DNA of 64,000 bases from a virus. The notes beneath the pieces were generated by a model, which was given only the letters and a program-made list of their open reading frames with translations, ran no database searches and was not told the origin of the DNA. Positions within the stretch are counted from its first letter, which is position 1. Every line of letters begins with the position of its first letter. This document shows, in pieces, positions 1 through 27,637 of the stretch. The DNA lies in IMG/VR virus record IMGVR_UViG_3300006903_000012. The stretch is one strand, 5' to 3'. Position numbers and translations under genes: made by a program.

Positions 1-377
1 CTTGTCACATCGGCATCAGATGCTTTATATGGATCAGGTCTCTTTTGTCTCATCTTCCCGGCATGTGTTCCTTGATCGTGCTTGCCGGGAAAGTGCTTTT
101 CCGATAACGATTTCTGATTCTGCTTAGCAACAAATGCTAACAATTCATCAGGATCAATTTCTATTTCTCCGCCACCGAAATTATGTGCGCCAAGATGCGC
201 TTCTGGAATCGATTTCTCGTGCTTGAAATACTCGACTTCAGCCAGACGCTTTGTGGCCCAGTCTTTACTAGGTCCGCAACCTAGATTTCTTTTTCCGTCT
301 TCACTAACCACACACCACTGATTGCCTTTTTTCTTAATCCGCTTTTCAACCAACTCGCTGATTACAAAGTCGGCCAT
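1..377 (-). CDS. virion-module protein; only the N-terminal ~125 codons are present because the gene runs off the left window edge
   Basis: Hand translation. The ATG at 375-377 overlaps the stop of the portal fusion by 16 nt and the frame stays open to coordinate 1 (MADFVISELVEKRIKKKGNQW...). It is missing from the ORF track because it has no stop in the window. It carries KHFPGKHDQGTHAG. Confidence 0.65.
   Translation of the reverse strand, partial: MADFVISELVEKRIKKKGNQWCVVSEDGKRNLGCGPSKDWATKRLAEVEYFKHEKSIPEAHLGAHNFGGGEIEIDPDELLAFVAKQNQKSLSEKHFPGKHDQGTHAGKMRQKRPDPYKASDADVT
57..98 (-). repeat. His-rich linker motif copy (KHFPGKHDQGTHAG)
   Basis: Direct translation of the minus strand. One of 8 copies of K-H-x-[PA]-G-x-H-[DN]-Q-x-x-H-[AG]-[GR]. 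Confidence 0.9.
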
Positions 378-3300
378 GTTTTGTCATCCTCAATTCGTCC
401 TAAAATTTCATAATGTTGCCGACCTACTGGCCGAGCTTGAATTTTTTGCAGCCAATTTTCTAAGGCTTGATTTGAATTGAACGCCATCACATCTGTTATT
501 TTTGTAACCGGATCGCCAGCGTTATCAACTTCTTCTTTGACACGCACCGTTCGTCCGTCTATTTGTAAATTCTTCAGTCGCTTTAATTTCTCAAAATTTC
601 CACGATTGAAGAAATTCAAATCCGGCGGGCGTCCATCATCTGGATCATGTACACCAGAATAACCAGTGCCAGTATAGAACGCTTTCTGCTCTAGCTCAGA
701 ATATTTAGAATCATATTCATCCATCCACATTCTCAAAGACAGATGATTAATACTATTAACATGAACACTTTGATCTGGTAAATCTACATCATCAAAATAA
801 AAATAACCTTTGCCTTTAACAAGTTCTGTTTTCGTCCTGCCCGTAACCTTCAGTGCTCGATTAACTTGAGCAACTGTTTTAGGAGTTTTACTGAAATCCA
901 TTCCTGATTCTTTTTCCAAATTTCCTGCATGAGTCTTCTGATCGTGTTTGCCAGCTTGGTGTTTAACTAAAATCTCATACCCATCTTTTTGTAACTGTCG
1001 CGCCGCTTGTTTCAACTCACCTTCAACAATAAGACTCTTAACAACTATTGGCAACTCATCATCGAAATCATATTTCCCATTATTACTCTTTACGACTGAT
1101 CGAACTAATGCCGGCATCTCAGGTTTGTAATATTCAAACCCATAATGCAGCACCATGTCTAAAAAGTCTTCATAGTAACGCTTCAAGTTCTCGTCATTGA
1201 CCGATTGTAGATCTTCTGTCTTAGCCCGGTCTTTGATAAACTGCTCAAATTCTTTTCGATATTGTCCGGGGATTTTTTCAGCATAGCTATCAAATCCCAA
1301 AAGTGATTTTTCAGTCTTGGAATTACCAAAAAGATAAAACTCTTTTTCATTTCCCAGATACAACCACACCCCAAACACATCCCATGTTACTGCTAATTCT
1401 TTCTCAGCCCCCATTGAAGTTAACTGGTTATCTGAAACTGTTACATGGGGTTTATATCCGCCCGCTTCCCACGTTCGATCTGGTGCCTGCCCATTCGACA
1501 ACAAACCCGCCACCAAATCATCATGTAGATGTTTTAGGGCGGGTGTGATTTTGACTTCTGCCACAGACACTTCTTGCAGGGTTATTATAGTGCCGGTCAG
1601 GTTGAGTGTCAAGGATTTTTGATCGTATTCAGAACACACTTTTTCGATAGTTTTTCTTATCGCCAGTGAGTCAAAATACCGATCCATTTTTCCTAAGTAA
1701 ACTAGTGTGATATGTGGCTCAGACTTTTTGAAATCTAACAGGTTAACTATCTCATTCGGGACCGATAGAGCAATCATACAGGTATCATCATGCTCAGCTT
1801 TTTCTTCAACTATCTTCGACCCTTTGATTCCCTTAGCTCCAAAAATCTTGGCTCGGCCCGCTCGGATATCATCTATCGGCAAATCACCTACATCCACCAA
1901 AGCCGCTTCAACATACTCATCGGCATCGGTGCCCCATACAATTCCTGCATAAGCATAATTGCCGCCGAGCACATCTATCTCACTGTCACTAATTACCGGC
2001 ACCAGACTATATTGTTGTAGATAATGCTGCGCATCGGCTACACTATCAAACCGAGACCGCTTACCAATTTGATCGGGCTGACCCCATGAATTCATGGGAA
2101 GAGATTTTTCTTTAATGGTTGTGCGATATGTTTTGTCGCCTTCTGGATCCTTCCAATCTGAAACAACCTTAACCTTTGTATTGCCTGGAACACCGAAATA
2201 CTCAAGTCCACTCAAAGCTGATTTTAGATTCTGATAGGCCCGATCTTCATTATTTCCAGCTCCCATCTGACCAAAGGCTGAACCGATCCACGGATCACCT
2301 CCCTCGGTATCTACTAGAACAAGCCGAACTGCTCGATTAAATGCCGCCTGTGATAACTCGGCACTATATGCAAGCTCATGGTGACTTGTATCATTCTCAA
2401 TCTGGCGACCCGCATACCACTTTCCATCTACTTTAATTAATAAAAGATTGAGATGTTTCTTAATTTCAGACTTTGTCGGGTGCCAGAACTTGTCTCGTTG
2501 ATAGCTCCCGGGACCAAGCTCTGAGTAATATGACACACTGGGTTTACTAAATTTGTGCTCAACCGCAGGTTTACCAATATCTTCTGGCACAGGAGTAGAA
2601 GAAAGAGCGCCGGCATGCTTTTTCTGATTATGCTTTCCCGGTTGGTGTTTCTCAACTGCTTTCTTATTTTCAGCAATAATTCGTTGCGTCTCTTGTTCCA
2701 GAATTTCTTTCAGCTTCGCATTCGACTCATCACCGTTCCAATAATGTCCGCCATCTTTCAAAAAGTCTTCGAATTCTTTTGGGTTCGACTGCAAGTTGCA
2801 ATGGCAAGTCATGGGATGCGCCGGTGGATGTTGTGTTGTCTCACCGTCGAACACCGTTTCATACTCAAAGTCTAAAGGCACAAATCCTTGCTCTTCATTT
2901 TGAGTACAAATATCACACACATCGTACCCACGCGTGATCCAACCTTTAGTCTTCAATCCCACTGCTGTCATTTGATCTAGAGTCGCCCGAGAATCAGCCC
3001 AATTCAATTCCGTATTTACAATTGAACGAATGCGCGACTCACTTAACTTACCAGCATCTTTCTTAAATTTCAAACCAAAAAGATTCGCCTGGATATAATC
3101 GACAATTTCTTCGCTGCTCAAACCATTATCATAACCAGTCAAAATATTTTGCCGAAGGAAATATTTTGTTCCACTATCGACATGCTGAACTAATGTGGCT
3201 GCTCGTGCATCTAACAGATCAATCACCGACGGATTAGTCAGAATGAACTGAAATTCTTTTGGTAACGTCAGTCGATCAGCCAAACCCGCTTCAAACATTT

Positions 3301-5438
3301 GCTGCTGAATATCTTGAACAGCCGTCAGAGAGCCTTCAGAATATGCTTGCCGCAAAATATCTAACAACTGATCTTGAATATCAGGCAGACAATACCAATC
3401 TTGCTCATTTAGAATATCGTCGAGTTTTTCAGATGCGGTAATTTCCGCTTTTTCTATTAAATCAATTTTAGATTTTTCTTCATGGTTAATATTCCATTCC
3501 CAGATCTTTCCAGTTTTTGTTTCAGATATGATCTTACCCCCAAGAGCTTCGTTCATTGAATTTGGCCGAATATTACCATGCTCAACATAAGCTCTAACAG
3601 AGTTAATACCCGACGATGCAAGTAACTTAAATATAGCATTTGCTGTTTCTTTTCCAAATCCAGAACCAGAACGTGACGAATCTATTCGATTGAAGTAGGC
3701 ATAATCACGATCATTATTGGGTAACTCTACTGTTGCAGTTACTACTATATCATCTTTAGGAAGTGCATTTTCTAACCAATTTTCTTTTCTTAACCTATCG
3801 TTTATTTTAGCATCAAAGAAGAGCCTGTCGCCGGATTGAGTAACAGTTATGTCTAACCTATCTGTGTGAATTTTACTGGGAATATTATCTTTTTTACCAT
3901 ACTCACCAGCATGTGATTCTTGATCGTGCTTGCCGGGGAGGTGTTTTTGTATTTCGTTATCTAACTCAACCAAACTTTTATACTCTTCAAGCGGCGCAAC
4001 TAATTCTTCCAAATGCTCAATAGTTAACTGATTACCGACTTGCTTAAAAGACTCTTGCAGTAATTTGCTAAACTTCTTAACTGTCTCACTTGAGTTTCTT
4101 AATTGCTTGCCGTCCGCTAACAAATCTTCCGCCAGCGATTTAGCATATTGTTGCATCTCGCTGTAAGCACTGTCTATTTGATCGAGAGCTTCAGGTTTGT
4201 TAGCATCTTCTTGCAGGCCACCGATCGCTTCAGTATCTTGATCGATAGAATCCAGACTATCACTAGGGAAACTATCCATACCTTCAAGCCCCGGAGCCGC
4301 TGGTAACCCGCTTGTTTTCACGTCAATAATTTTCCACGCCTCAGCTTGTTTCTGAGCATCAATCGGTTTCAAGATCGGTTGATTACCAGTCAAAGTCATT
4401 AGCATCGTTGCACGTTTACCAGCCAGATCTGCTTGCACACTCGTCTCGCCGGTCATATCAATTTTGAACTTGAACTTGAACCCAGATGCAGTCGACATCA
4501 GAATCTTTGTATTAATGAGATCCTCGACTAATTGAGCATAGAAACCAGTGCCCGCTCGCGACGATACTTTTGAAGACGCTTCCACACCCGCCAATGTACG
4601 ATCATGCTCAAAGATTCGCAAATCGCCAATTGACAATCCAAACGCAGCACACACCATTTCAGCAAAACGTTTGAAATTCTCAATCATATTCACATCAGCC
4701 GGCGAAAGAGTTAATGGAATAAATCTCGCCGGCTTTGTGTGATCGTACAACAGTGGCATTTTCATGGGATCAATGTCATTCCACATTTCGCGGAAACCTG
4801 TTGCCCATGCGATTGCTTCTGCTTCAGACATATCCATAACATCCAAAATCCCAGCCATCGGTGTGTTACCCAATTGCTTGAGATAATAAAGATAGATGCG
4901 CGAGAGAGCTTCAATCGATAAAAATGCACTTTCAACTGGCGCTTCTTGAAATACTTTGCGAGTCAAATCAGTTCGTGGTTGAGTAATCAAACGAATCACA
5001 TCGCCACGACCAAAATAAACTCGATCTAATCCATTATAGGGATTGATCTGTACAAACGGAATGTCGCGATCATAGGTGGGGTATAATGTTTCACCATCAA
5101 TATGATAGAGACCACCAATGATTCCGTCCATTTCAGGATTCGCCACAACTTCAGCATTTCCCGCAATGGGGAGAATTAGAGCATCTTGCAGCATGCGCGA
5201 CAACCATACGTCCCAACCATCACCATCATCTGCATCCGCCAGAACTTTCTCGAGATACATTTTCATCTCGCCTTGTTCTTCTGGCTTATCACTAACTATT
5301 TCCCATTCCAAAGATACAAGTTCGCGCAAGATATGCCGAATACAAAGCTTTGTAATCGGCTCCGTCGCAACTTGATACTTCCACTGAGCTACCGACAAGC
5401 GAGTTGGGTTAGCTAAATAAAGCGGTTGCAATTTGTTA
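362..5438 (-). CDS. portal protein fused to MuF-like, GNAT-like, repeated-module and 2H-phosphoesterase-like domains (exon 2 of a split gene)
   Basis: Continuous 1689-codon ORF. The N-terminal ~380 aa look portal-like. Downstream lies an SPP1 gp7/Mu F-like head-morphogenesis domain ending in HPMTCHCNL. There is no ATG or SD at the track start (TTG 5431); see the intron and exon 1 features. Confidence 0.8.
923..964 (-). repeat. His-rich linker motif copy (KHQAGKHDQKTHAG)
   Basis: Direct translation. Confidence 0.9.
1325..1785 (-). other. 2H phosphoesterase (LigT-like) domain inside the portal fusion
   Basis: Two H-x-T/S-x motifs at typical spacing: EPHITLVYLG and YKPHVTVSD. Confidence 0.55.
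2100..2540 (-). other. repeated ~130-aa module (copy in the portal fusion)
   Basis: ...KWYAGRQ...HHELAYSA...VRLVLV...AYQNLKSALSGLEYFGVP...TTIKEKSL aligns by eye with three segments of ORF 8085-10835. Confidence 0.5.
2609..2650 (-). repeat. His-rich linker motif copy (KHQPGKHNQKKHAG)
   Basis: Direct translation. Confidence 0.9.
2790..3260 (-). other. Mu F / SPP1 gp7-like minor head protein domain
   Basis: ...SRIRSIVNTELNWADSRA...GWITRGYDVCDICTQNE...HPPAHPMTCHCNL resembles the family, including the C-terminal HPxCxC-type motif. Confidence 0.65.
3490..3860 (-). other. possible GNAT-type acetyltransferase domain
   Basis: RSGSGFGKETANAIFKLL...VRAYVEHGNIRPNSMNEALGG resembles the GNAT motif A (R/Q-x-x-G-x-G/A) and the downstream N...S...G segment. 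Confidence 0.35.
3905..3946 (-). repeat. His-rich linker motif copy (KHLPGKHDQESHAG)
   Basis: Direct translation. Confidence 0.9.
4310..5438 (-). other. portal domain
   Basis: Size, position at the head-module start, and general portal-like pattern (...EPITKLCIRHILRELVSLEWEIV..., ...ILDVMDMSEAEAIAW...). The family was not verified. Confidence 0.55.
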
Positions 5439-5699
5439 CAAAGTCTTACAGACCTTTGAGTAAGTCATTTCTGCTCACTTCTTGCAATTCCTATTTCTTG
5501 CAAGTTCAGACTATATCATTATCTTTCTTCAAGATAGTTCCCACATAGTCGTTACACACTTCCGCAGATGCGGGTTGGCTCGGTATTTGGACTCTCACCA
5601 TTCACCGAATTCGAGAACTGTTACAACATCCATTACTGGATGAAGCCGCCAAGTTGACGGGTTAAGTAGGGGGGCGGTTGCTGTATACTCGTCGGCGCA
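5439..5699 (-). mobile_element. ORF-less group I intron (~261 nt) in the portal gene
   Basis: On the minus strand: R-like GUGUAACGACUAUGUGGG (5540-5557), and S-like GAUAUAGUC (5509-5517) pairing with it as P7. P3 is CCUAC (5666-5670) with GUGGG. A GNRA hairpin lies at 5627-5642, P8 at 5520-5536, P9 at 5481-5504. P1 is GUCGGU/GCCGAC (5691-5705) with U.G at the splice site. The terminal G is at 5439. Splicing restores the frame. Confidence 0.7.
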
Positions 5700-5731
5700 A
5701 CCGACTTCTGTACAATAAGTTCATCTGCCAT
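5700..5731 (-). CDS. portal gene exon 1 (MADELIVQKS + 2 nt)
   Basis: The ATG at 5729-5731 lies 8 nt after AGGAG (5740-5744). The 32 nt end in GU and join to U at 5438 to give V-NKLQPLYLANP in frame. Confidence 0.6.
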
Positions 5732-6593
5732 CAATATTTCTCCTGAGAAATAATTTCTCAACCCGAGCAACTTGCTCTTTTGTGTTCTTCAAAAGTTTTG
5801 TATCCCAAATCACAATAACCTTATACCCTGCATCTTTATATGCTTGAATTCTTTTCTTATCTCTTGGATTATCTTTCGCATGCCAGTAGACACCAAAAAG
5901 CTCAACAATTATTTTCTTATTGGTATTTACAAAATCTGGGTTAAACCTATTTACCCAAAATGCACCGTTACCCACATATCTAAAACCAAATCGCTTTAGA
6001 TATCTCATCAGAAGTTTTTCTGGTTTATTTGGACTTCTAGGTTCTAATCGTTTCTCAATAACTGCATCTTTCTCACTATCTGACAAACCATCCCAATATT
6101 TTCTGAGTGATTTAGAAAGTTTATCTGACCTGAGTTGCTTAGCTTTCCTTGGTGTACGCAACCAAGTTTCGGTAACAGATTGCGAAATCTTTTTAGCTAT
6201 TTCTTGTTCTTCCTCGGCAGTTCGTCTTTTGTGTACTCGCTTAATCGCTTTCGACAAACTTTTACGAAATTCAGCATCACGCTCAGGAGTAAAGTTTCTT
6301 CTGGCTTCCGCTGATTTCCTACCAATTCGTTGTCTTTCTTCTATCGGTACCTTAGCATGTCTTTTCTTTTGAATCCTTGAAATTCGAGCACAAACTTCGG
6401 CAGAGTATTTATTGCCCTTGTTGGGCGATGGTCGACCCAAATTCTGGACAGACAGCAGAAACTTAGTCTCATCACTCATCACTCGACCGTTGTGATGATT
6501 GATAAATCGTCTTCCAAAATTCGCTCGTTCACCACATCCACATAGACACAACGGTCCTTTTTTAGATTTAGACTTTTGTTTTCGGCCTGCCAT
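5721..6593 (-). CDS. free-standing homing endonuclease, Vsr-like PD-(D/E)xK nuclease C-terminal domain
   Basis: N-terminal CLCGCGERANF...HHNGR Zn-finger-like motif, then basic helical repeats. The C-terminus FNPDFVNTNKKIIVELFGVYWHAKDN...VIVIWD resembles the Vsr / EDxHD-type endonuclease core. The stop lies inside portal exon 1. Confidence 0.65.
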   Translation of the reverse strand: MAGRKQKSKSKKGPLCLCGCGERANFGRRFINHHNGRVMSDETKFLLSVQNLGRPSPNKGNKYSAEVCARISRIQKKRHAKVPIEERQRIGRKSAEARRNFTPERDAEFRKSLSKAIKRVHKRRTAEEEQEIAKKISQSVTETWLRTPRKAKQLRSDKLSKSLRKYWDGLSDSEKDAVIEKRLEPRSPNKPEKLLMRYLKRFGFRYVGNGAFWVNRFNPDFVNTNKKIIVELFGVYWHAKDNPRDKKRIQAYKDAGYKVIVIWDTKLLKNTKEQVARVEKLFLRRNIDGR

Positions 6594-7104: not shown

Positions 7105-8088
7105 TTATAAATTAGATTTCTCTTTAATAAAAAATGCCGATGCAGGAGGTGTCGGTTCGTCCGAATATCCTTCCCAATCATCGGGAGTTTTATCACTTAA
7201 AAAATTAGTTAGGAATTCTGCACGTTTTGGATATCGTTCAGAAAAATAATCAGGAAGAGTGTAAAACAATTCAACTGACGTTGCAAAATCTTCTGACAAA
7301 TTAGTCTTACTTAGATGTGCAGAATGGATTTGTCTAGCGTTTTTCTTCTCACTATTGATTACATTTTTCCAAAGCTTAGATCTGCTAAAACTTAAAGAAC
7401 CCTTACTGGCACCCATTGCAGCGTCCAAATTATGTGCCAACTCGTGAATCGCTGACCGTTCATCGGTATAATTCAAAACTGGTGGATGAGAGTCTTGTTC
7501 TTCAAGTGGACGACTCACTACGGAAAATGTCCCAGCAATTCCAGTAACAAACCCTTTCTTTCTAGAAAAAACTCTCTTCCTATATTTAGAAATTTCATTC
7601 TTTGCCCAAGACGGAAATCTTCCTAAAGCCTGCTCATAAACCGCTGCATCGTTCTCGTAAGTCGCAAAATTTCTAACCATCGAACCAGCATGCGTTTTCT
7701 GGTCATGCTGGCCGGGCAAATGCTTTCCAATACTTCCACTTGTCTCTTTCCGGCCCACTAACATCTTCAATCGCCCCTTCGGCGTCAATAGCAACGTCCG
7801 AGTTGTACCACCTGCACTACCATTACTTGTTTCTAACTGCTCAACTAAACCTTGTCGCACTAATTCGTGAATCTCATTTTTGTGCTGCATCCAATAAACA
7901 TCTGAAAGTGCGTGACCTTCAGTTTCTATTTTGTAGAGAATTTCAGATTCGAAATTAGATTGGCCGAGTTGAGATTCGTCGATATTAGACTTTTCAACAG
8001 ATGCTCGTCTCTTCGGATCATGCAAAGAATGTATCTCAGTAACTAAATCAAGAACATAGTTCCCATCGCTATCAGTATAAATTTTCAT
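7105..8088 (-). CDS. zincin-like metallopeptidase with N-terminal domain and His-rich linker
   Basis: HExxH (IHELAHNLD) with a downstream EDFATSVELF as a possible third ligand region. KHLPGQHDQKTHAG lies between the two halves. There is a 4-nt overlap with the upstream gene. Confidence 0.6.
   Translation of the reverse strand: MKIYTDSDGNYVLDLVTEIHSLHDPKRRASVEKSNIDESQLGQSNFESEILYKIETEGHALSDVYWMQHKNEIHELVRQGLVEQLETSNGSAGGTTRTLLLTPKGRLKMLVGRKETSGSIGKHLPGQHDQKTHAGSMVRNFATYENDAAVYEQALGRFPSWAKNEISKYRKRVFSRKKGFVTGIAGTFSVVSRPLEEQDSHPPVLNYTDERSAIHELAHNLDAAMGASKGSLSFSRSKLWKNVINSEKKNARQIHSAHLSKTNLSEDFATSVELFYTLPDYFSERYPKRAEFLTNFLSDKTPDDWEGYSDEPTPPASAFFIKEKSNL
7684..7725 (-). repeat. His-rich linker motif copy (KHLPGQHDQKTHAG)
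   Basis: Direct translation. Confidence 0.9.
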
Positions 8089-10835
8089 TGATTAATAACC
8101 AAGTCAGCTACAAGTAACGGAGCCTTAAAACTATCTGTCCGAATAGTTGTACTTCTAACTTCTACTTTACCATTAATAATCGGTACAATCTCATGCTCAT
8201 CATTGTATCCAAAATTATTAATTTTATAAGAATATAAAATAGATTCTCTAGGGACATTAACTATAAACATTAACTTTCCTTCAGAAAAATCATGTGCTAC
8301 CTCATAAGTATCTGACCAATGACCGACAGTATCTACATCAGCTAATTTTATACTTCCATTAGCAATTCTTGTAATTAATTCATCAGGAACATCTAAACCT
8401 CTATGAAGCACAACAGAGTTCTCTGGTAATGTCAGTTGTGCTGCAGCCCACATCATATCGAGACCTGGATCATTTTTTCCGGCTGTCCAAGATTTTACTC
8501 TAGATGCTAGCTCGTCGGCACTCCCCTTTTTACCATCATAAAATCTTTCTATACTGACAAATGCAGATAGTACTGATCTATTATAGGGAGTGTTTAAAAT
8601 ACGATCTTTATCTGAAAAAGTAATTCCCAAATCCTCAAACCTTTTTCTGTCATCATATACATAGTTACCCACTTTATATCCCTGCCCCACAGTATTTCTT
8701 ACTGCTTTAACTCCGCCAGCCTTTTTCACAATACCAATCATTTTTCTGGCACGTTCCAACGATTTGTTTTTAGCAATTCCACTTGGTCGCCCATGTGTTA
8801 ACTGATTGTGTCTACCGGGTAAATGCTTCTTAATCTCTTCTCGCAACTTCTCTTTAGCAAGATAATGCTTAACGACTTCATCAAGTCTAGAATCTTGCTC
8901 CAATATCTGATCTGTAGTAAAAGATTCTAACTTGCCATATCCATCATCTAATAATAGCTTTCCCTTATAACCAGCAGACTGTAAACTGGTAGCTAAACTT
9001 AAGACATCGCCTTTAGGCGGCAAATCAGATCGAATATCAAAAAGAGACATTCCGGGCTTAAATTTCTCAGTTGAATAAATATAAATACCAGCAGATGATA
9101 ATGCTATCCGCATGGCTATCATTCGACTACTGTCAGTCTGCCGCAACAAGTTTTTAGCCAGAACAATATGCTCAACTGAAGACCTGCCGGACGGAGCAAA
9201 GACCAACCGATCTTCAGTTGGCAAGTATAAACCGACGACACTGGACGAGTCGTCTTCTTCAGAATTCTCAACCTCTGACAGAACTTTATATGCCTTTGCT
9301 AATTCGTTTTTATTGGACGCTACAATATCATCCCCAGCATGAGATTGTTGATCGTGTAACCCTGCTAAATGTTTTATTTCCTGCACTTCACGGTACACTC
9401 GATCACCCGCATCAATTTGATTACGCAGTTTCGCAATTGTGAAAGCATCACGCGATTGGAGAGCCATCTTTAGTTTATCTTCCAATGAGCGTCGGCGAGA
9501 TATCCAAGCCTTATGAGCACCAGAAGATGTGCCATATTTTTCAATTAGAGATTTTTCTCCAATTGTCGTAGAATAATCGTCTTCTTCATTATTAATATCT
9601 TGAATATATACCTTCATTGATTTTGGTAAACCAAAATACTCAAGACCAGATAAAGCCGATTTTAAATTACGATACGCATCATCACTTCTAGTACTACCTA
9701 AATGATCTGAGAGCGAACTGACTACCAACTTTTCATCTGAACCTTTTACAAGCCTAAGACGAACAGATTTATCGAACTCATCAGAAGAGAGACCAATATC
9801 TGCAGCAAGATCGGCATGCATTGAAATTTTATTTTTAGTTCCTTGTATTGCTGGTTTTGCATACCATTTCTTACCAACTTTCAGTAACAATAAGTTTGAT
9901 CTCCAGAAACTATCATTTTGATAACTATCTTTCAACAAATTAGAGTAATAAATTGTCCCATCTTTAGATTTATGTTTCTCAGCCAATGATGTAGCAATAC
10001 TACTACCATCATTACCACCATGAGTTTTCTGATTATGTTTCCCCGGTTGATGCTTCTCAAACACTATCGGATTCTCATTCTCATCAAATCCCAGCGCGAT
10101 TCTAATTTGCTCAGCTAATTCGGCGGCAGCATCTTTCTTTTTCTTATCTTGGTCGGCACTGATTATTTCGACAGGGCTAATAGGTTGGGGATATTCAGCA
10201 GCAAAATCGGGCAGATACTTGATACTCAATATCGCATCTTGTAATCTTTTGACTGCCAAAGATTTGACCGTCGTCGTAACGACTCGGCCTGAATGCAAAT
10301 CAATTTTAACAGGAGTCTCGGCAGGTATTCCAATTTGATAAAGTTTATCTAGCGCCCAATAAACTTTCTTAACTCTCGGCTCATCATCAGCTGGACCAAC
10401 TATTCCTGTGCCTGAGCGATCTATAGTTATTTGACCTTTCTGATATCTAAACCGAATGCTTGTATCAAACAAATGCCTAATATCCGCATTAGCAGTTATA
10501 TCAGCGTGAACAGCATCAGAATCCAGTGTTGCATAAACATTGCCGTTAGGAGTAACAATAGCTGTTACCTTTTCGTTGTCTATTTCATCATCTTGAAGAT
10601 CTTTTGTAAAATCTGACCAATCATCTACTCGATAGATATTAAATCGTTTAGATCTACCATATTTAGTTGCATCATAAATAAGTTCATTAGAACTCGAAAT
10701 AATATCTTTGCTACTTCCACCCACTTCACCCTTACGACCACTATGTCCAAAGTTTCCAGAACCGACGCCACCTTTAACAACAAGATGCCCAACATCTTGG
10801 ATAATCATTTGTAATCTTTGTCTAGTGTCAAGCAT
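8085..10835 (-). CDS. polyvalent virion protein: three repeated modules, three His-rich linkers, C-terminal ADP-ribosyltransferase-like domain
   Basis: Long ORF. I prefer the ATG at 10835 (MLDTRQ..., AGGAG upstream) to the track start at 10898, which would overlap the upstream gene. Confidence 0.75.
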   Translation of the reverse strand: MLDTRQRLQMIIQDVGHLVVKGGVGSGNFGHSGRKGEVGGSSKDIISSSNELIYDATKYGRSKRFNIYRVDDWSDFTKDLQDDEIDNEKVTAIVTPNGNVYATLDSDAVHADITANADIRHLFDTSIRFRYQKGQITIDRSGTGIVGPADDEPRVKKVYWALDKLYQIGIPAETPVKIDLHSGRVVTTTVKSLAVKRLQDAILSIKYLPDFAAEYPQPISPVEIISADQDKKKKDAAAELAEQIRIALGFDENENPIVFEKHQPGKHNQKTHGGNDGSSIATSLAEKHKSKDGTIYYSNLLKDSYQNDSFWRSNLLLLKVGKKWYAKPAIQGTKNKISMHADLAADIGLSSDEFDKSVRLRLVKGSDEKLVVSSLSDHLGSTRSDDAYRNLKSALSGLEYFGLPKSMKVYIQDINNEEDDYSTTIGEKSLIEKYGTSSGAHKAWISRRRSLEDKLKMALQSRDAFTIAKLRNQIDAGDRVYREVQEIKHLAGLHDQQSHAGDDIVASNKNELAKAYKVLSEVENSEEDDSSSVVGLYLPTEDRLVFAPSGRSSVEHIVLAKNLLRQTDSSRMIAMRIALSSAGIYIYSTEKFKPGMSLFDIRSDLPPKGDVLSLATSLQSAGYKGKLLLDDGYGKLESFTTDQILEQDSRLDEVVKHYLAKEKLREEIKKHLPGRHNQLTHGRPSGIAKNKSLERARKMIGIVKKAGGVKAVRNTVGQGYKVGNYVYDDRKRFEDLGITFSDKDRILNTPYNRSVLSAFVSIERFYDGKKGSADELASRVKSWTAGKNDPGLDMMWAAAQLTLPENSVVLHRGLDVPDELITRIANGSIKLADVDTVGHWSDTYEVAHDFSEGKLMFIVNVPRESILYSYKINNFGYNDEHEIVPIINGKVEVRSTTIRTDSFKAPLLVADLVINQ
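8088..8560 (-). other. ADP-ribosyltransferase (R-S-E type) domain
   Basis: VVLHRG (Arg), then GHWSDT (S-x-S/T) about 30 aa later, then NDEHEIVPI (E-x-E) about 37 aa after that. Order and spacing are typical of R-S-E ARTs. Confidence 0.55.
8787..8828 (-). repeat. His-rich linker motif copy (KHLPGRHNQLTHGR)
   Basis: Direct translation. Confidence 0.9.
9333..9374 (-). repeat. His-rich linker motif copy (KHLAGLHDQQSHAG)
   Basis: Direct translation. Confidence 0.9.
9548..9960 (-). other. repeated ~130-aa module (best-matching copy)
   Basis: ...KKWYAKPA...MHADLAADIG...VRLRLV...AYRNLKSALSGLEYFGLP...TTIGEKSL is the closest match to 2100-2540. Nucleotide similarity is visible at 9640-9680 versus 2200-2240. 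Confidence 0.6.
10014..10055 (-). repeat. His-rich linker motif copy (KHQPGKHNQKTHGG)
   Basis: Direct translation. Confidence 0.9.
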
Positions 10836-10845
10836 CTTGAAACTC

Positions 10846-11055
10846 CTAATCGTGCACTGCACTTTCCAAAAGAATATCCGAACCGGACTCAGTAACATTA
10901 AGTGACGAAAAAGACTTGACCGGATTAGTTAACCCATTACCATCACCAATCCACACTACAAATGGCTCGCCCGTTTCAGAATTAACTTCAGGCAGATCTT
11001 TTACTAACTCTTTCAGTCTTGCAACTGTTAATGGACTATCAAAATTTAAGATCAT
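10846..11055 (-). CDS. hypothetical protein
   Basis: 69-aa ORF with a 4-nt overlap with the upstream gene. Confidence 0.5.
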   Translation of the reverse strand: MILNFDSPLTVARLKELVKDLPEVNSETGEPFVVWIGDGNGLTNPVKSFSSLNVTESGSDILLESAVHD

Positions 11056-22067: not shown

Positions 22068-22141
22068 AGCACCAAGCGGGACTCGAACCCACAATCTACA
22101 AATTAGAAGTTTGTCGATCTATCCAGTTGATCTATTGGTGC
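22068..22141 (-). tRNA. tRNA-Arg (anticodon UCU)
   Basis: Hand-folded cloverleaf: acceptor GCACCAA/UUGGUGC, D arm GAUC-AACUGGAUA-GAUC, anticodon arm ACAAA-CUUCUAA-UUUGU, T arm GUGGG-UUCGAGU-CCCGC. 74 nt. Confidence 0.85.
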
Positions 22142-26074: not shown

Positions 26075-27637
26075 CTACACCCTCACAAATTTACGTGCAG
26101 CTCGTGGACGAATACTGGCTCCATAGCAAGACATTGAACTAGCTACTGCCAAGTCAATTTTAGCTTTTGTTTTTTCTTTATCTAATCGAAAGCCGCGTTC
26201 AGATTCTTCAGCCACTGCGTTCAAAACATGCGTTCGAAGTGCTGGACTTAAAATTCGATGCAACTTCTTCGTAACTATCCATTGATAAAGTGCATTATCC
26301 GATTCGATGCGTCCAGAGTTCTGTGGAAAATCCACAAAGAGTTTCTTAGAATTATGTGGATCATATTTCTTCCGCAAGTTAGTCATAATGGTATGCAATT
26401 GATAATTATCATAATAGACTGCTTCGACTTTGAAAGTATCTAACAGCCAAATCAGTTTAGCACCGAGAGTTTGCTCCAAATCAATTTCTTTGACATCTGA
26501 CCCTTCGACAACTTGTGGCTTCCATTCCCAGGCCGCAATAATATCTGGTCCTTGTCGATCTAAATCCCAATGTGAGATAACTAATGCCGCACTGTCATTA
26601 TGAACACCAGCATCAGCACCCACAAATAGAAAACGTAGATCACCTTCTTCATTGAGTGATTCGCATTCTTCTAAAACATCCCATTGAGCGGGTTCGATAA
26701 AGACTGATGTACTACTAACCCATTCGTTTTGATGAAGACGTTTATAAGCATTAGGTCGAAGATCGGCACGCTGTTGAATATAATATTCCTCAGTCTGCCA
26801 CGGCATCCGATGTTCATGGCTCCAATAGACTAACATCTTTGACTGTGGAACATAATAAACTGGTAAATCATCAAGTTCAGGAATTTTTTGACCAAGTAAT
26901 TGATTTTCATTGCCGTCTTTAAAAACTTGACAGTATAGATTCCACAAAATATCTGATTCGTTCAAAAATCCGGCGTATGTCTCAACCCAACGAACCGAAA
27001 ATCGCCGAGTCGGGACGGGGGTCATCTCCTCCCACAGTCTCTTTCTGCGCTCTGATGTGTACGCCCACAACTCACTCCACAGTGTTAGTCCAGGATTTCC
27101 TCCGGCTTCGCCTTCATAAGCTGTACCGATAGCTTTGACCTTGGTACCTGTATGCTCATTTGACATTGATGGTTTCTGGTCGGGCACATTCCAACCCAAT
27201 CGCTTGAGAGTCGGGACCATAGCCGCATAGATGCGGCCTTGCGCTTGTTCCTTGTCATTAGCAATTGAAATTATTTCATTGGGTGCTTCAACATAATTTC
27301 CCCAATAAGACCCAGCTAAACCAGCAGATGCTGTCTTACCACTTTTCTTCGGTTCAGACCAAAGAACTGTAGTAATTAATTTTGCCCAGATGCCTTTAAA
27401 AATATATCTAAAAATTCTTTGCTGATGGTCTTCTAGTCTAACAAGTTTTTCAGTTGTTGGGTCAATAAAATTACCGTGCGCCCAGTCAACTATATCTGGT
27501 GGCTCAACCCAAACAGATTCAACAATTGCATTCGATGCTGACTCAGGTGGATCCAATCGATCCGCCAAATCTAAAATTAACTGAGTTGCGAACGGGGCCC
27601 CGTTCGCAACTTGTTTAGGTTTGCTTTTTCGGGGCAT
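26075..27637 (-). CDS. terL: terminase large subunit
   Basis: Walker A-like SEPKKSGKTASAG near the N-terminus and a C-terminal RNase H-like nuclease segment (FLFVGADAGVHNDSAALVISHW). Size is 520 aa. Confidence 0.85.
   Translation of the reverse strand: MPRKSKPKQVANGAPFATQLILDLADRLDPPESASNAIVESVWVEPPDIVDWAHGNFIDPTTEKLVRLEDHQQRIFRYIFKGIWAKLITTVLWSEPKKSGKTASAGLAGSYWGNYVEAPNEIISIANDKEQAQGRIYAAMVPTLKRLGWNVPDQKPSMSNEHTGTKVKAIGTAYEGEAGGNPGLTLWSELWAYTSERRKRLWEEMTPVPTRRFSVRWVETYAGFLNESDILWNLYCQVFKDGNENQLLGQKIPELDDLPVYYVPQSKMLVYWSHEHRMPWQTEEYYIQQRADLRPNAYKRLHQNEWVSSTSVFIEPAQWDVLEECESLNEEGDLRFLFVGADAGVHNDSAALVISHWDLDRQGPDIIAAWEWKPQVVEGSDVKEIDLEQTLGAKLIWLLDTFKVEAVYYDNYQLHTIMTNLRKKYDPHNSKKLFVDFPQNSGRIESDNALYQWIVTKKLHRILSPALRTHVLNAVAEESERGFRLDKEKTKAKIDLAVASSMSCYGASIRPRAARKFVRV

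Follow-up and report, generated by a model that had tools for sequence, protein, structure and literature searches.

Why would a bacteriophage build its portal protein and a string of enzyme-like units into one polypeptide, and what becomes of such a chain in the virion? This question is raised by a gene of the IMG/VR virus record IMGVR_UViG_3300006903_000012, from which we analysed a stretch of 64,000 nucleotides (nt; the window), a phage genome fragment whose genes all lie on the minus strand. The gene encodes a portal polyprotein, in which a portal domain is followed by a MuF head morphogenesis domain and by cargo units that include a 2H phosphoesterase domain. A first-pass annotation had read positions 362-5731 as a single frame of about 1700 codons and had mentioned, as one of two options, that the product is cut at His-rich motifs. 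What sets the gene apart is the full portal-MuF-cargo string in one gene, combined with cassettes delimited by a histidine-rich motif across four head genes. In our favoured reading, which we hold to be probable, the product of this intron-split gene is a portal-anchored polyvalent protein whose motif-marked cassettes are processed in head maturation and whose pieces are ejected. That the cut would fall at the motif itself is, in our judgement, an even bet.

A portal, MuF and cargo string in one gene

The long open reading frame (ORF) at 362..5431 on the minus strand runs for 1689 codons without any internal stop, as had been noticed before, and its first start codon is a TTG. The true start is the ATG at 5731, with AGGAG 8 nt upstream, and the length first given to the gene was right. 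What had been missed is that six in-frame stops lie between 5731 and 5431, because a group I intron sits there. The Rfam model RF00028 matches 5487..5666 over its full length (model positions 1-253; 54.7 bits against a gathering score of 50, E 3e-13), and the intron RNA folds better than shuffled controls (z -2.5). We inferred the intron ends, placing the 5' splice site after the U of CGU (P1 pairing CCGU/GCGG) and the 3' end at the G of 'TTG' (5429). Joining 5657 to 5428 yields a product of 1713 amino acids (aa), in which YLTR is followed by QPLY at a junction conserved in eight relatives. By these matches the portal gene is split by a group I intron, predicted to be self-splicing, and its frame is therefore continuous only after splicing. 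Throughout, units are numbered with the TTG of the ORF as residue 1; adding 24 gives the position in the spliced protein.

At the N-terminus, the portal domain proposed by the first-pass annotation is recognised by phrog_2662 (E 4e-23 over aa 15-325). PF04860 matches as well (E 3e-7, profile positions 6-300 of 321, 30.3 bits, below the cut-off of 39.1), and relatives of the protein carry precomputed PF04860 matches. The portal region is 53-60% identical to that of the relatives P0002-P0010; a profile of the 10-member family alignment matched no solved portal in the PDB. The MuF domain, which had been expected to end in HPMTCHCNL, does end in this peptide and is matched by phrog_2468 'head morphogenesis' (E 2e-12 over aa 668-883), and the region is 48-54% identical to P0002-P0006. 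PF04233 gave no match in the portal polyprotein at E<=0.1, and a match below cut-off (E 1.4e-3) in the relative P0005, which is 48% identical. The translation contains CDIC ... HPMTCHC, conserved in P0002-P0007 and an instance of the CxxC ... HPxCxC C-terminal signature that we take to be typical of the MuF family.

The cargo units followed the outline that had been drawn for them, with one reservation. A module common to the neighbouring gene is indeed present: aa 921-1111 align with aa 275-451 of a 937-aa neighbour at 43% identity (E 2e-31). The 2H unit, suspected from two HxT/S motifs, is recognised by PF13563 (40.4 bits against a cut-off of 27, aa 1234-1335) and, below cut-off, by TIGR02258 (E 2e-4); both motifs (PHITL, PHVTV) are invariant across four homologues, P0002, P0005 and P0006 among them. 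The C-terminal domain was also borne out, as a small phrog_9154 domain and a module that is 63% identical to the C-terminus of P0003. The reservation concerns the GNAT acetyltransferase, an identity that is likely but not established for aa 512-655. In its favour, RSGSGFGKE fits the acetyl-CoA pyrophosphate-binding motif R/Q-x-x-G-x-G/A (beta4-alpha3), and the top 50 PDB matches found by Foldseek are all GNATs (best RimI 2cnm_A, E 6.7e-4, template-modelling score ~0.4), from a weak single-sequence model with a mean predicted local distance difference test score (pLDDT) of 47.5. The best profile, FR47, covers the RSGSGFG region but stays below its cut-off (E 0.039, 14.4 bits against 22.1), a sequence search of the PDB found no GNAT, and no homologue of the unit was found in the relatives.

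Backbone and inserted cassettes

Is the fusion real? The identical protein is found on three ~111 kb contigs from different sources, and nine further clusters, 43-60% identical and on separate contigs, consist of the portal N-terminus and 500-1200 further residues. MuF is included in six of the nine. Because nine independent clusters (six with MuF) have it in common, the fusion is not an artefact of assembly, a possibility that the first-pass annotation had wanted excluded. Judged by sequence comparison, the portal-MuF-cargo fusion is real and conserved.

Set against its relatives, the polyprotein separates into a backbone and cassettes. The backbone, shared partly or wholly, comprises the portal, MuF, a 'WG' module, the 2H domain (in some), a 'SYAEK' module and the C-terminal module. 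Relative to P0003, three insertions interrupt it (aa ~496-640, 932-1108 and 1488-1582), and a His-rich motif opens each. The inserted cassettes are lineage-specific: the GNAT-like unit, the module also found in the 937-aa neighbour, and the phrog_9154 domain.

Three other relatives, P0008-P0010, have no MuF, and their portal is joined directly to ~1000 residues; thus, portal-cargo fusion does not require MuF. The extension of P0009 gives a HipA-like kinase match (E 5e-4). At the place where the His-rich motif stands in the present protein, after the portal domain, P0009 (aa 496) and P0010 (aa 509) have 'GHPFRGNQY'. This may be a related signal, to judge from the P-x-[KR]-x-[DN]-Q core that it has in common with the motif.

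A histidine-rich motif at the edge of cargo modules

The motif reads K-H-[LQ]-[PA]-G-x-H-[DN]-Q-x-x-H-[AG], 13 residues, followed by G in the cassette form; the wider consensus is [VI]-x-K-H-L-[PA]-G-[QK]-H-D-Q-x-[ST]-H-G. The first-pass annotation did notice it, but treated as a side remark what is the most unusual feature of the locus. In fact, 12 copies lie in four adjacent head-module genes: three in the 916/937-aa protein, one in a 327-aa zincin protein, three in the portal polyprotein and five in a 1106-aa protein, a count that includes the downstream gene as recovered from L001, a contig of the same phage. In the window the degenerate DNA pattern of the motif has 8 matches, where 100 shuffles give an expectation of 0.00. 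The copies have a mean nucleotide identity of 68% and their synonymous codons vary freely; therefore, selection acts on the motif peptide. The same free variation excludes a DNA- or RNA-level element or a recombination site.

Hundreds of phage proteins carry the motif. A profile of the 8 window copies, run against 1.84 billion representative proteins, retrieved 463 clusters at E<=1e-3 and 120 at E<=1e-10, and 463 is a lower bound because single copies are rarely significant. One protein of 3023 aa has 10 copies, the most found. Among 147 listed motif proteins, which exclude P0001-P0011, the median spacing is 239 aa, the first copy lies a median of 27 aa from the N-terminus, and the motif is never C-terminal; its K, L, P/A and G, which the search expression left free, are 84-93% conserved. 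Blocks of homology between motif proteins start at the motif in 41% of cases (controls 14%) and end at it in 33% (controls 11%). The domains of these proteins are those known from polyvalent proteins and ejected effectors: ART, MuF, zeta toxin, Topo IB, GNAT, InPase, PARP, ParB, NUDIX, LPD1 and portal. No Pfam family is common to them, and the motif is thus not modelled in Pfam.

In IMG/VR the DNA pattern matches more than 118 stretches, with up to 10 matches per 14 kb. In 185,579 species genomes it occurs in 5 stretches, all of them contigs of metagenome-assembled genomes, near a rough chance estimate of ~1, which excludes a generic prophage or cellular feature. Beside the long form, a short form KHxxH[DN]QxxHG[SN]WA occurs in up to 13 copies per locus (L002, L015, L020, L022, L060, L084, L111 and others). 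We found no mention of the motif in the 2017 survey of polyvalent proteins by Iyer et al. (PMC5512222), and literal strings of it gave chance matches only in the literature searched. The motif is apparently undescribed.

Table 1. Features of the window. Residues are numbered from the TTG of the long ORF.
Feature	Position	Strand	Residues	Remarks
Portal-polyprotein gene, whole	362..5731	minus		exon 1, group I intron and exon 2
Exon 1, 25 codons (MADELIVQKSVAPTSIQQPPPYLTR)	5657..5731	minus		aligns to the N-termini of P0003-P0010
Group I intron, 228 nt	5429..5656	minus		six in-frame stops; RF00028, fold, restored conserved junction
Exon 2, begins CAA CCG (QPLY...)	362..5428	minus		stop codon 362-364
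Portal domain and linker	3998..5389	minus		profile match aa 15-335; relatives' homology to ~aa 478
Motif copy 1 (KHLPGKHDQESH)	3911..3946	minus		N-terminal edge of GNAT-like insertion
GNAT-like unit, lineage-specific	3467..3898	minus	512-655	weak FR47 match, motif, Foldseek
MuF / SPP1 gp7-like head morphogenesis domain	2639..3457	minus	659-931	ends CDIC...HPMTCHC
Motif copy 2 (KHQPGKHNQKKH)	2615..2650	minus		N-terminal edge of shared-module insertion
Module common to 937-aa neighbour	2108..2602	minus	944-1108	insertion relative to P0003
'WG' backbone module (SLP..WG.PD...RSRF...ISDS)	1790..2107	minus	1109-1214	in P0002-P0006, P0086, P0013
2H phosphoesterase domain	1322..1789	minus	1215-1370	PHITLVY and PHVTVS
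'SYAEK' backbone module (SYAEKIPGQYRKEF...)	971..1309	minus	1375-1487	common to P0002-P0006
Motif copy 3 (KHQAGKHDQKTH)	929..964	minus		N-terminal edge of phrog_9154 insertion
Small phrog_9154 domain	695..877	minus	1519-1579	E 8e-14; insertion relative to P0003
C-terminal backbone module, 107 aa (KAFYTGTGYSGVHDPD...)	365..685	minus	1583-1689	also in P0002, P0003, P0005
Start of downstream 1106-aa gene, runs off window	1..377	minus		motif 63..98; full gene L001 15055..18375
Free-standing homing-endonuclease-like gene (NUMOD3 and Vsr/DUF559)	5721..6593	minus		stop 11 nt inside exon 1
327-aa protein: N-terminal domain, motif, M90-like HExxH zincin	7105..8088	minus		motif 7690..7725
937-aa ORF (916 aa in L001), modular cargo polyprotein	8085..10898	minus		motifs 8793..8828, 9339..9374, 10020..10055
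tRNA-Arg(TCT)	22068-22141	minus		between terminase region and small-gene block
Large terminase	26075..27637	minus

Neighbouring head genes and candidate proteases

If the cassettes are processed, which enzyme would do it? The 327-aa protein matches Peptidase_M90 (PF06167, 29.9 bits against a cut-off of 26.2), has the sequence HELAH, and carries its motif directly before the zincin domain. From these features, it is a candidate processing peptidase. By eye, HExxH modules also follow the motif in P0007 and P0002.

The 1106-aa protein downstream combines its five motifs with a zinc ribbon and an N-terminal phrog_3684 domain (E 4e-5) that is found in many motif-bearing proteins. Its C-terminal domain (L001 17836-18372), with a motif ~140 aa upstream, has an invariant His and Ser and is kept in P0042 and P0128 with the same architecture. 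In P0159 and in L125 (2460-4076) this domain is fused to a ChaB domain (PDB 1sg7, E 2e-9) and a scaffold-like acidic tail, and the fusion lies directly upstream of the major head protein (phrog_212). Directly upstream of the major head protein is the usual position of the prohead protease. Elsewhere, among the matches listed, an XkdF-type (Peptidase_S78_2) domain occurs within the retrieved stretch in 37 of ~118 IMG/VR motif loci, and in 7 of these 37 it shares an ORF with the motifs; the short form of the motif is present in these loci as well. No XkdF-like domain was found in 89 kb of the present phage genome. The probable scaffold of this phage is an acidic protein of 523 aa (L001 18383-19954), which has a zinc ribbon at its N-terminus and resembles P0159 at its C-terminal end.

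Processed cargo or tethered cargo?

We envision the following sequence of events for the favoured reading. The portal part would form the dodecamer at the vertex, and its C-terminal extension would reach into the procapsid. Since the portal ring carries the fused modules, about 12 copies of each would be packaged with no targeting step of their own. As the head matures, a head-associated protease would cut at or near the motifs and free three pieces from the ring: GNAT-MuF, the shared module with WG, 2H and SYAEK, and the C-terminal piece. Ejected together with the DNA, the freed pieces would work early in infection: the substrates of the 2H unit would be cyclic or 2'-5' nucleotides or the ends of RNA, and that of the GNAT unit a host protein or a small molecule. 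Cargo modules in three neighbouring genes, and in phage polyproteins by the hundred elsewhere, would be marked by the same motif. What the data show is the gene structure, the intron, which domains are present, the conservation of the fusion, and how the motif behaves and is distributed; we infer that the motif is cut, by which protease, that the pieces enter the host, and what the enzymes act on.

The motif itself most likely signals the maturation or processing of packaged cargo, as its placement suggests: it always stands before a module, follows a short leader in single-module proteins, and lies upstream of peptidase and protease modules. Of the options weighed by the first-pass annotation, cutting at the motifs is the one that the comparative data favour. 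More tentatively, we would generalise from the portal polyprotein to a universal cargo tag that is used by a large group of phages, uncultured and apparently virulent. Such a tag would mark the N-terminal edge of every capsid-interior module, direct its maturation (by cleavage, metal-dependent self-processing or covalent tethering) and serve as a junction for the shuffling of effector modules, with the portal polyprotein as the extreme case.

Several results weigh against the processing of an ejected polyvalent protein. P0003 and P0006 are without any His-rich motif, yet have portal, MuF and cargo fused; therefore, release at the motif is not essential in the portal-protein family. The motif, whose 13 residues are strongly conserved even between very divergent phages, exceeds the usual length of a protease site, and its role may instead be to bind a metal or a structural partner that is itself conserved. 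Among the domains, the GNAT-like unit has a profile match below its cut-off, and MuF is backed by PHROG and not by Pfam for the portal polyprotein itself. GenBank phages gave no match by megablast or tblastn to the region, the protein or a 26-aa motif peptide.

The protease candidates bring further difficulties of this kind. A search for homologues of the zincin protein returned only itself, with none near other motif loci. For the C-terminal domain of the 1106-aa protein, Pfam, PHROG, NCBIfam and PDB searches (phmmer/hmmsearch) revealed no link to protease families, hhalign revealed none to the 37 XkdF-like domains, and an AlphaFold model from a 4-sequence alignment (pLDDT 45.6) gave only noise in Foldseek. 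An HK97-type pattern seen by eye (D..D.GD..., H, ISMGF, E..PV) was unconfirmed by profile searches. Because all comparisons with protease families failed, we keep this domain as a positional candidate only for the prohead protease.

Could the chain then stay whole? In the alternative that survives best, the polyprotein is unprocessed and the motif is a flexible linker that binds metal (Zn/Ni) or docks to capsid or scaffold. The 1713-aa chain would stay on the portal ring, and 12 copies of each module would act in the capsid or at the exit channel (in DNA organisation, ejection priming or on the exiting nucleic acid) and would not be injected free. Three spaced His with D/N-Q are typical metal ligands, and the length of the motif and its absence from P0003 and P0006 suit a linker well. 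Furthermore, the motif region has no confident predicted structure, as expected of a short linear binding motif, and N4 vRNAP-type polyvalent proteins are packaged unprocessed (PMC5512222). However, the short leader (median 27 aa) and the lack of any C-terminal copy fit a propeptide or cleavage signal better, enzymes tethered to the portal could not reach host targets, and the position of the motif upstream of protease and peptidase modules is that of self-releasing viral polyproteins. On balance we hold the tethered chain to be unlikely.

A second alternative makes the motif chemically active, either in metal- or His-assisted self-cleavage at the [DN]-Q bond or in an isopeptide or transglutaminase-type crosslink of cargo modules to each other or to the shell. 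It would account for the (near) invariance of K, Q and the three His and for the alternation of D and N at one position. The motif is also kept across phages with unrelated protease families nearby (XkdF-type elsewhere, an unclassified domain in this phage), and its partner may therefore not be a protease. Against this, the idea stands on chemical analogy, with no precedent for the motif sequence; the flanks are not conserved and offer no fold to position catalytic residues; and the short variant KHxxHDQxxH shifts the spacing of the first His. We consider it improbable. Weakest by far, to the point that we give it virtually no credence, is a chimeric contig or missed frameshift by which separate genes for portal, MuF and cargo became joined: portal and MuF usually have a gene each and the contig comes from metagenome assemblies, but the three contigs, the six relatives with the same continuous portal-MuF fusion, and a group I intron that is the sole interruption and whose removal restores a conserved peptide rule out an artefact of assembly or annotation.

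Comparison with known systems

Polyvalent proteins in which 2H or PBECR domains are fused to MuF or portal domains have been published (Iyer, Burroughs, Anand, de Souza and Aravind 2017, J Bacteriol, PMC5512222), with a repertoire that includes GNAT, ART, Topo IB, InPase and zincin peptidases. The way of dosing effectors that the first-pass annotation called unusual had thus been described in 2017. Like the polyvalent proteins, the portal polyprotein has several effector-type domains in one polypeptide, anchored by virion domains. It shows the sequence features that define the class (PMC5512222): portal and MuF as anchors, the 2H domain, the GNAT-like unit and four uncharacterised modules, and, in its neighbourhood, a zincin-like metallopeptidase, the 327-aa protein. 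We therefore hold with high confidence, jointly, that the gene model is right and that the protein belongs to this class. The same paper expects zincin metallopeptidases to process such proteins and suggests that defence nucleotides are broken down by the 2H units (PMC5512222), with which the earlier counter-defence reading of the 2H unit agrees. The present case also differs from the published one: in this phage the motif marks module boundaries in four adjacent genes and the portal gene has a group I intron; and while polyvalent proteins are often found in prophages and conjugative elements, the motif proteins are almost absent from cellular genomes and prophages.

Prohead maturation in T4 and phiKZ offers a second comparison. 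The internal proteins of T4 carry a capsid-targeting sequence that is cut by gp21. Head proteins of phiKZ and SPN3US are cut at a short consensus (PMC5694885, PMC10052503). The likeness lies in one short signal that recurs in many head-packaged, ejected proteins, near the N-terminus or between domains, and in these phages the protease gene lies in the head module and the protease is itself processed. However, the T4 and phiKZ sites are 3-residue consensuses that end in Glu, whereas the present motif has 13 residues, is His-rich and far more conserved, and is only presumed to be cleaved; moreover, the portals of these phages, unlike this one, are not known to carry such cargo.

MuF-toxin fusions of the SPP1 gp7/Mu F type (PMC5512222) likewise use MuF as a head-internal, portal-associated anchor with variable C-terminal effectors, but here MuF is covalently fused to the portal and stands mid-chain, with cassettes on both sides. 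A further parallel is gp47 of phi24B, a polyvalent protein of 2811 aa that was detected in virions by mass spectrometry (bioRxiv 10.64898/2026.04.10.717836). This giant multi-domain protein has LPD domains and a metallopeptidase, is packaged in the capsid and is proposed to be ejected. In contrast to the portal polyprotein, gp47 is encoded apart from the portal as a product of its own, and a His-rich delimiter motif is not reported for it.

Without the motif, the portal-MuF-2H architecture, already published, would be only moderately interesting. Should the motif prove to be a signal for processing or packaging, it provides a sequence handle on the injected-effector repertoire of uncultured phages (ARTs, kinases, Topo IB, 2H, GNAT and unknown modules) and could be turned into a portable tag that brings foreign proteins into capsids. 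In addition, a portal fusion that sets cargo at 12 per virion is a testable model of early-effector dosing, and the 2H unit is a candidate degrader of defence signalling nucleotides.

Introns and other features of the window

The intron of the portal gene resembles other phage group I introns (RF00028): it is ~230 nt long, interrupts a conserved essential gene, and is accompanied by a free-standing endonuclease gene. The difference is that the endonuclease ORF (5721-6593) adjoins the intron from outside and sits directly upstream of exon 1. Two further group I introns above the Rfam threshold lie in L001 (20240-20421 and 20775-20966), downstream of the scaffold-like gene, among ORFs of 90 aa and three DUF559-type endonuclease genes. 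It is probable that several exons make up the major capsid gene in this phage, which would account for the lack of a recognised one. In addition to the large terminase and one tRNA, the window encodes PolA, a clamp, a clamp loader and helicases.

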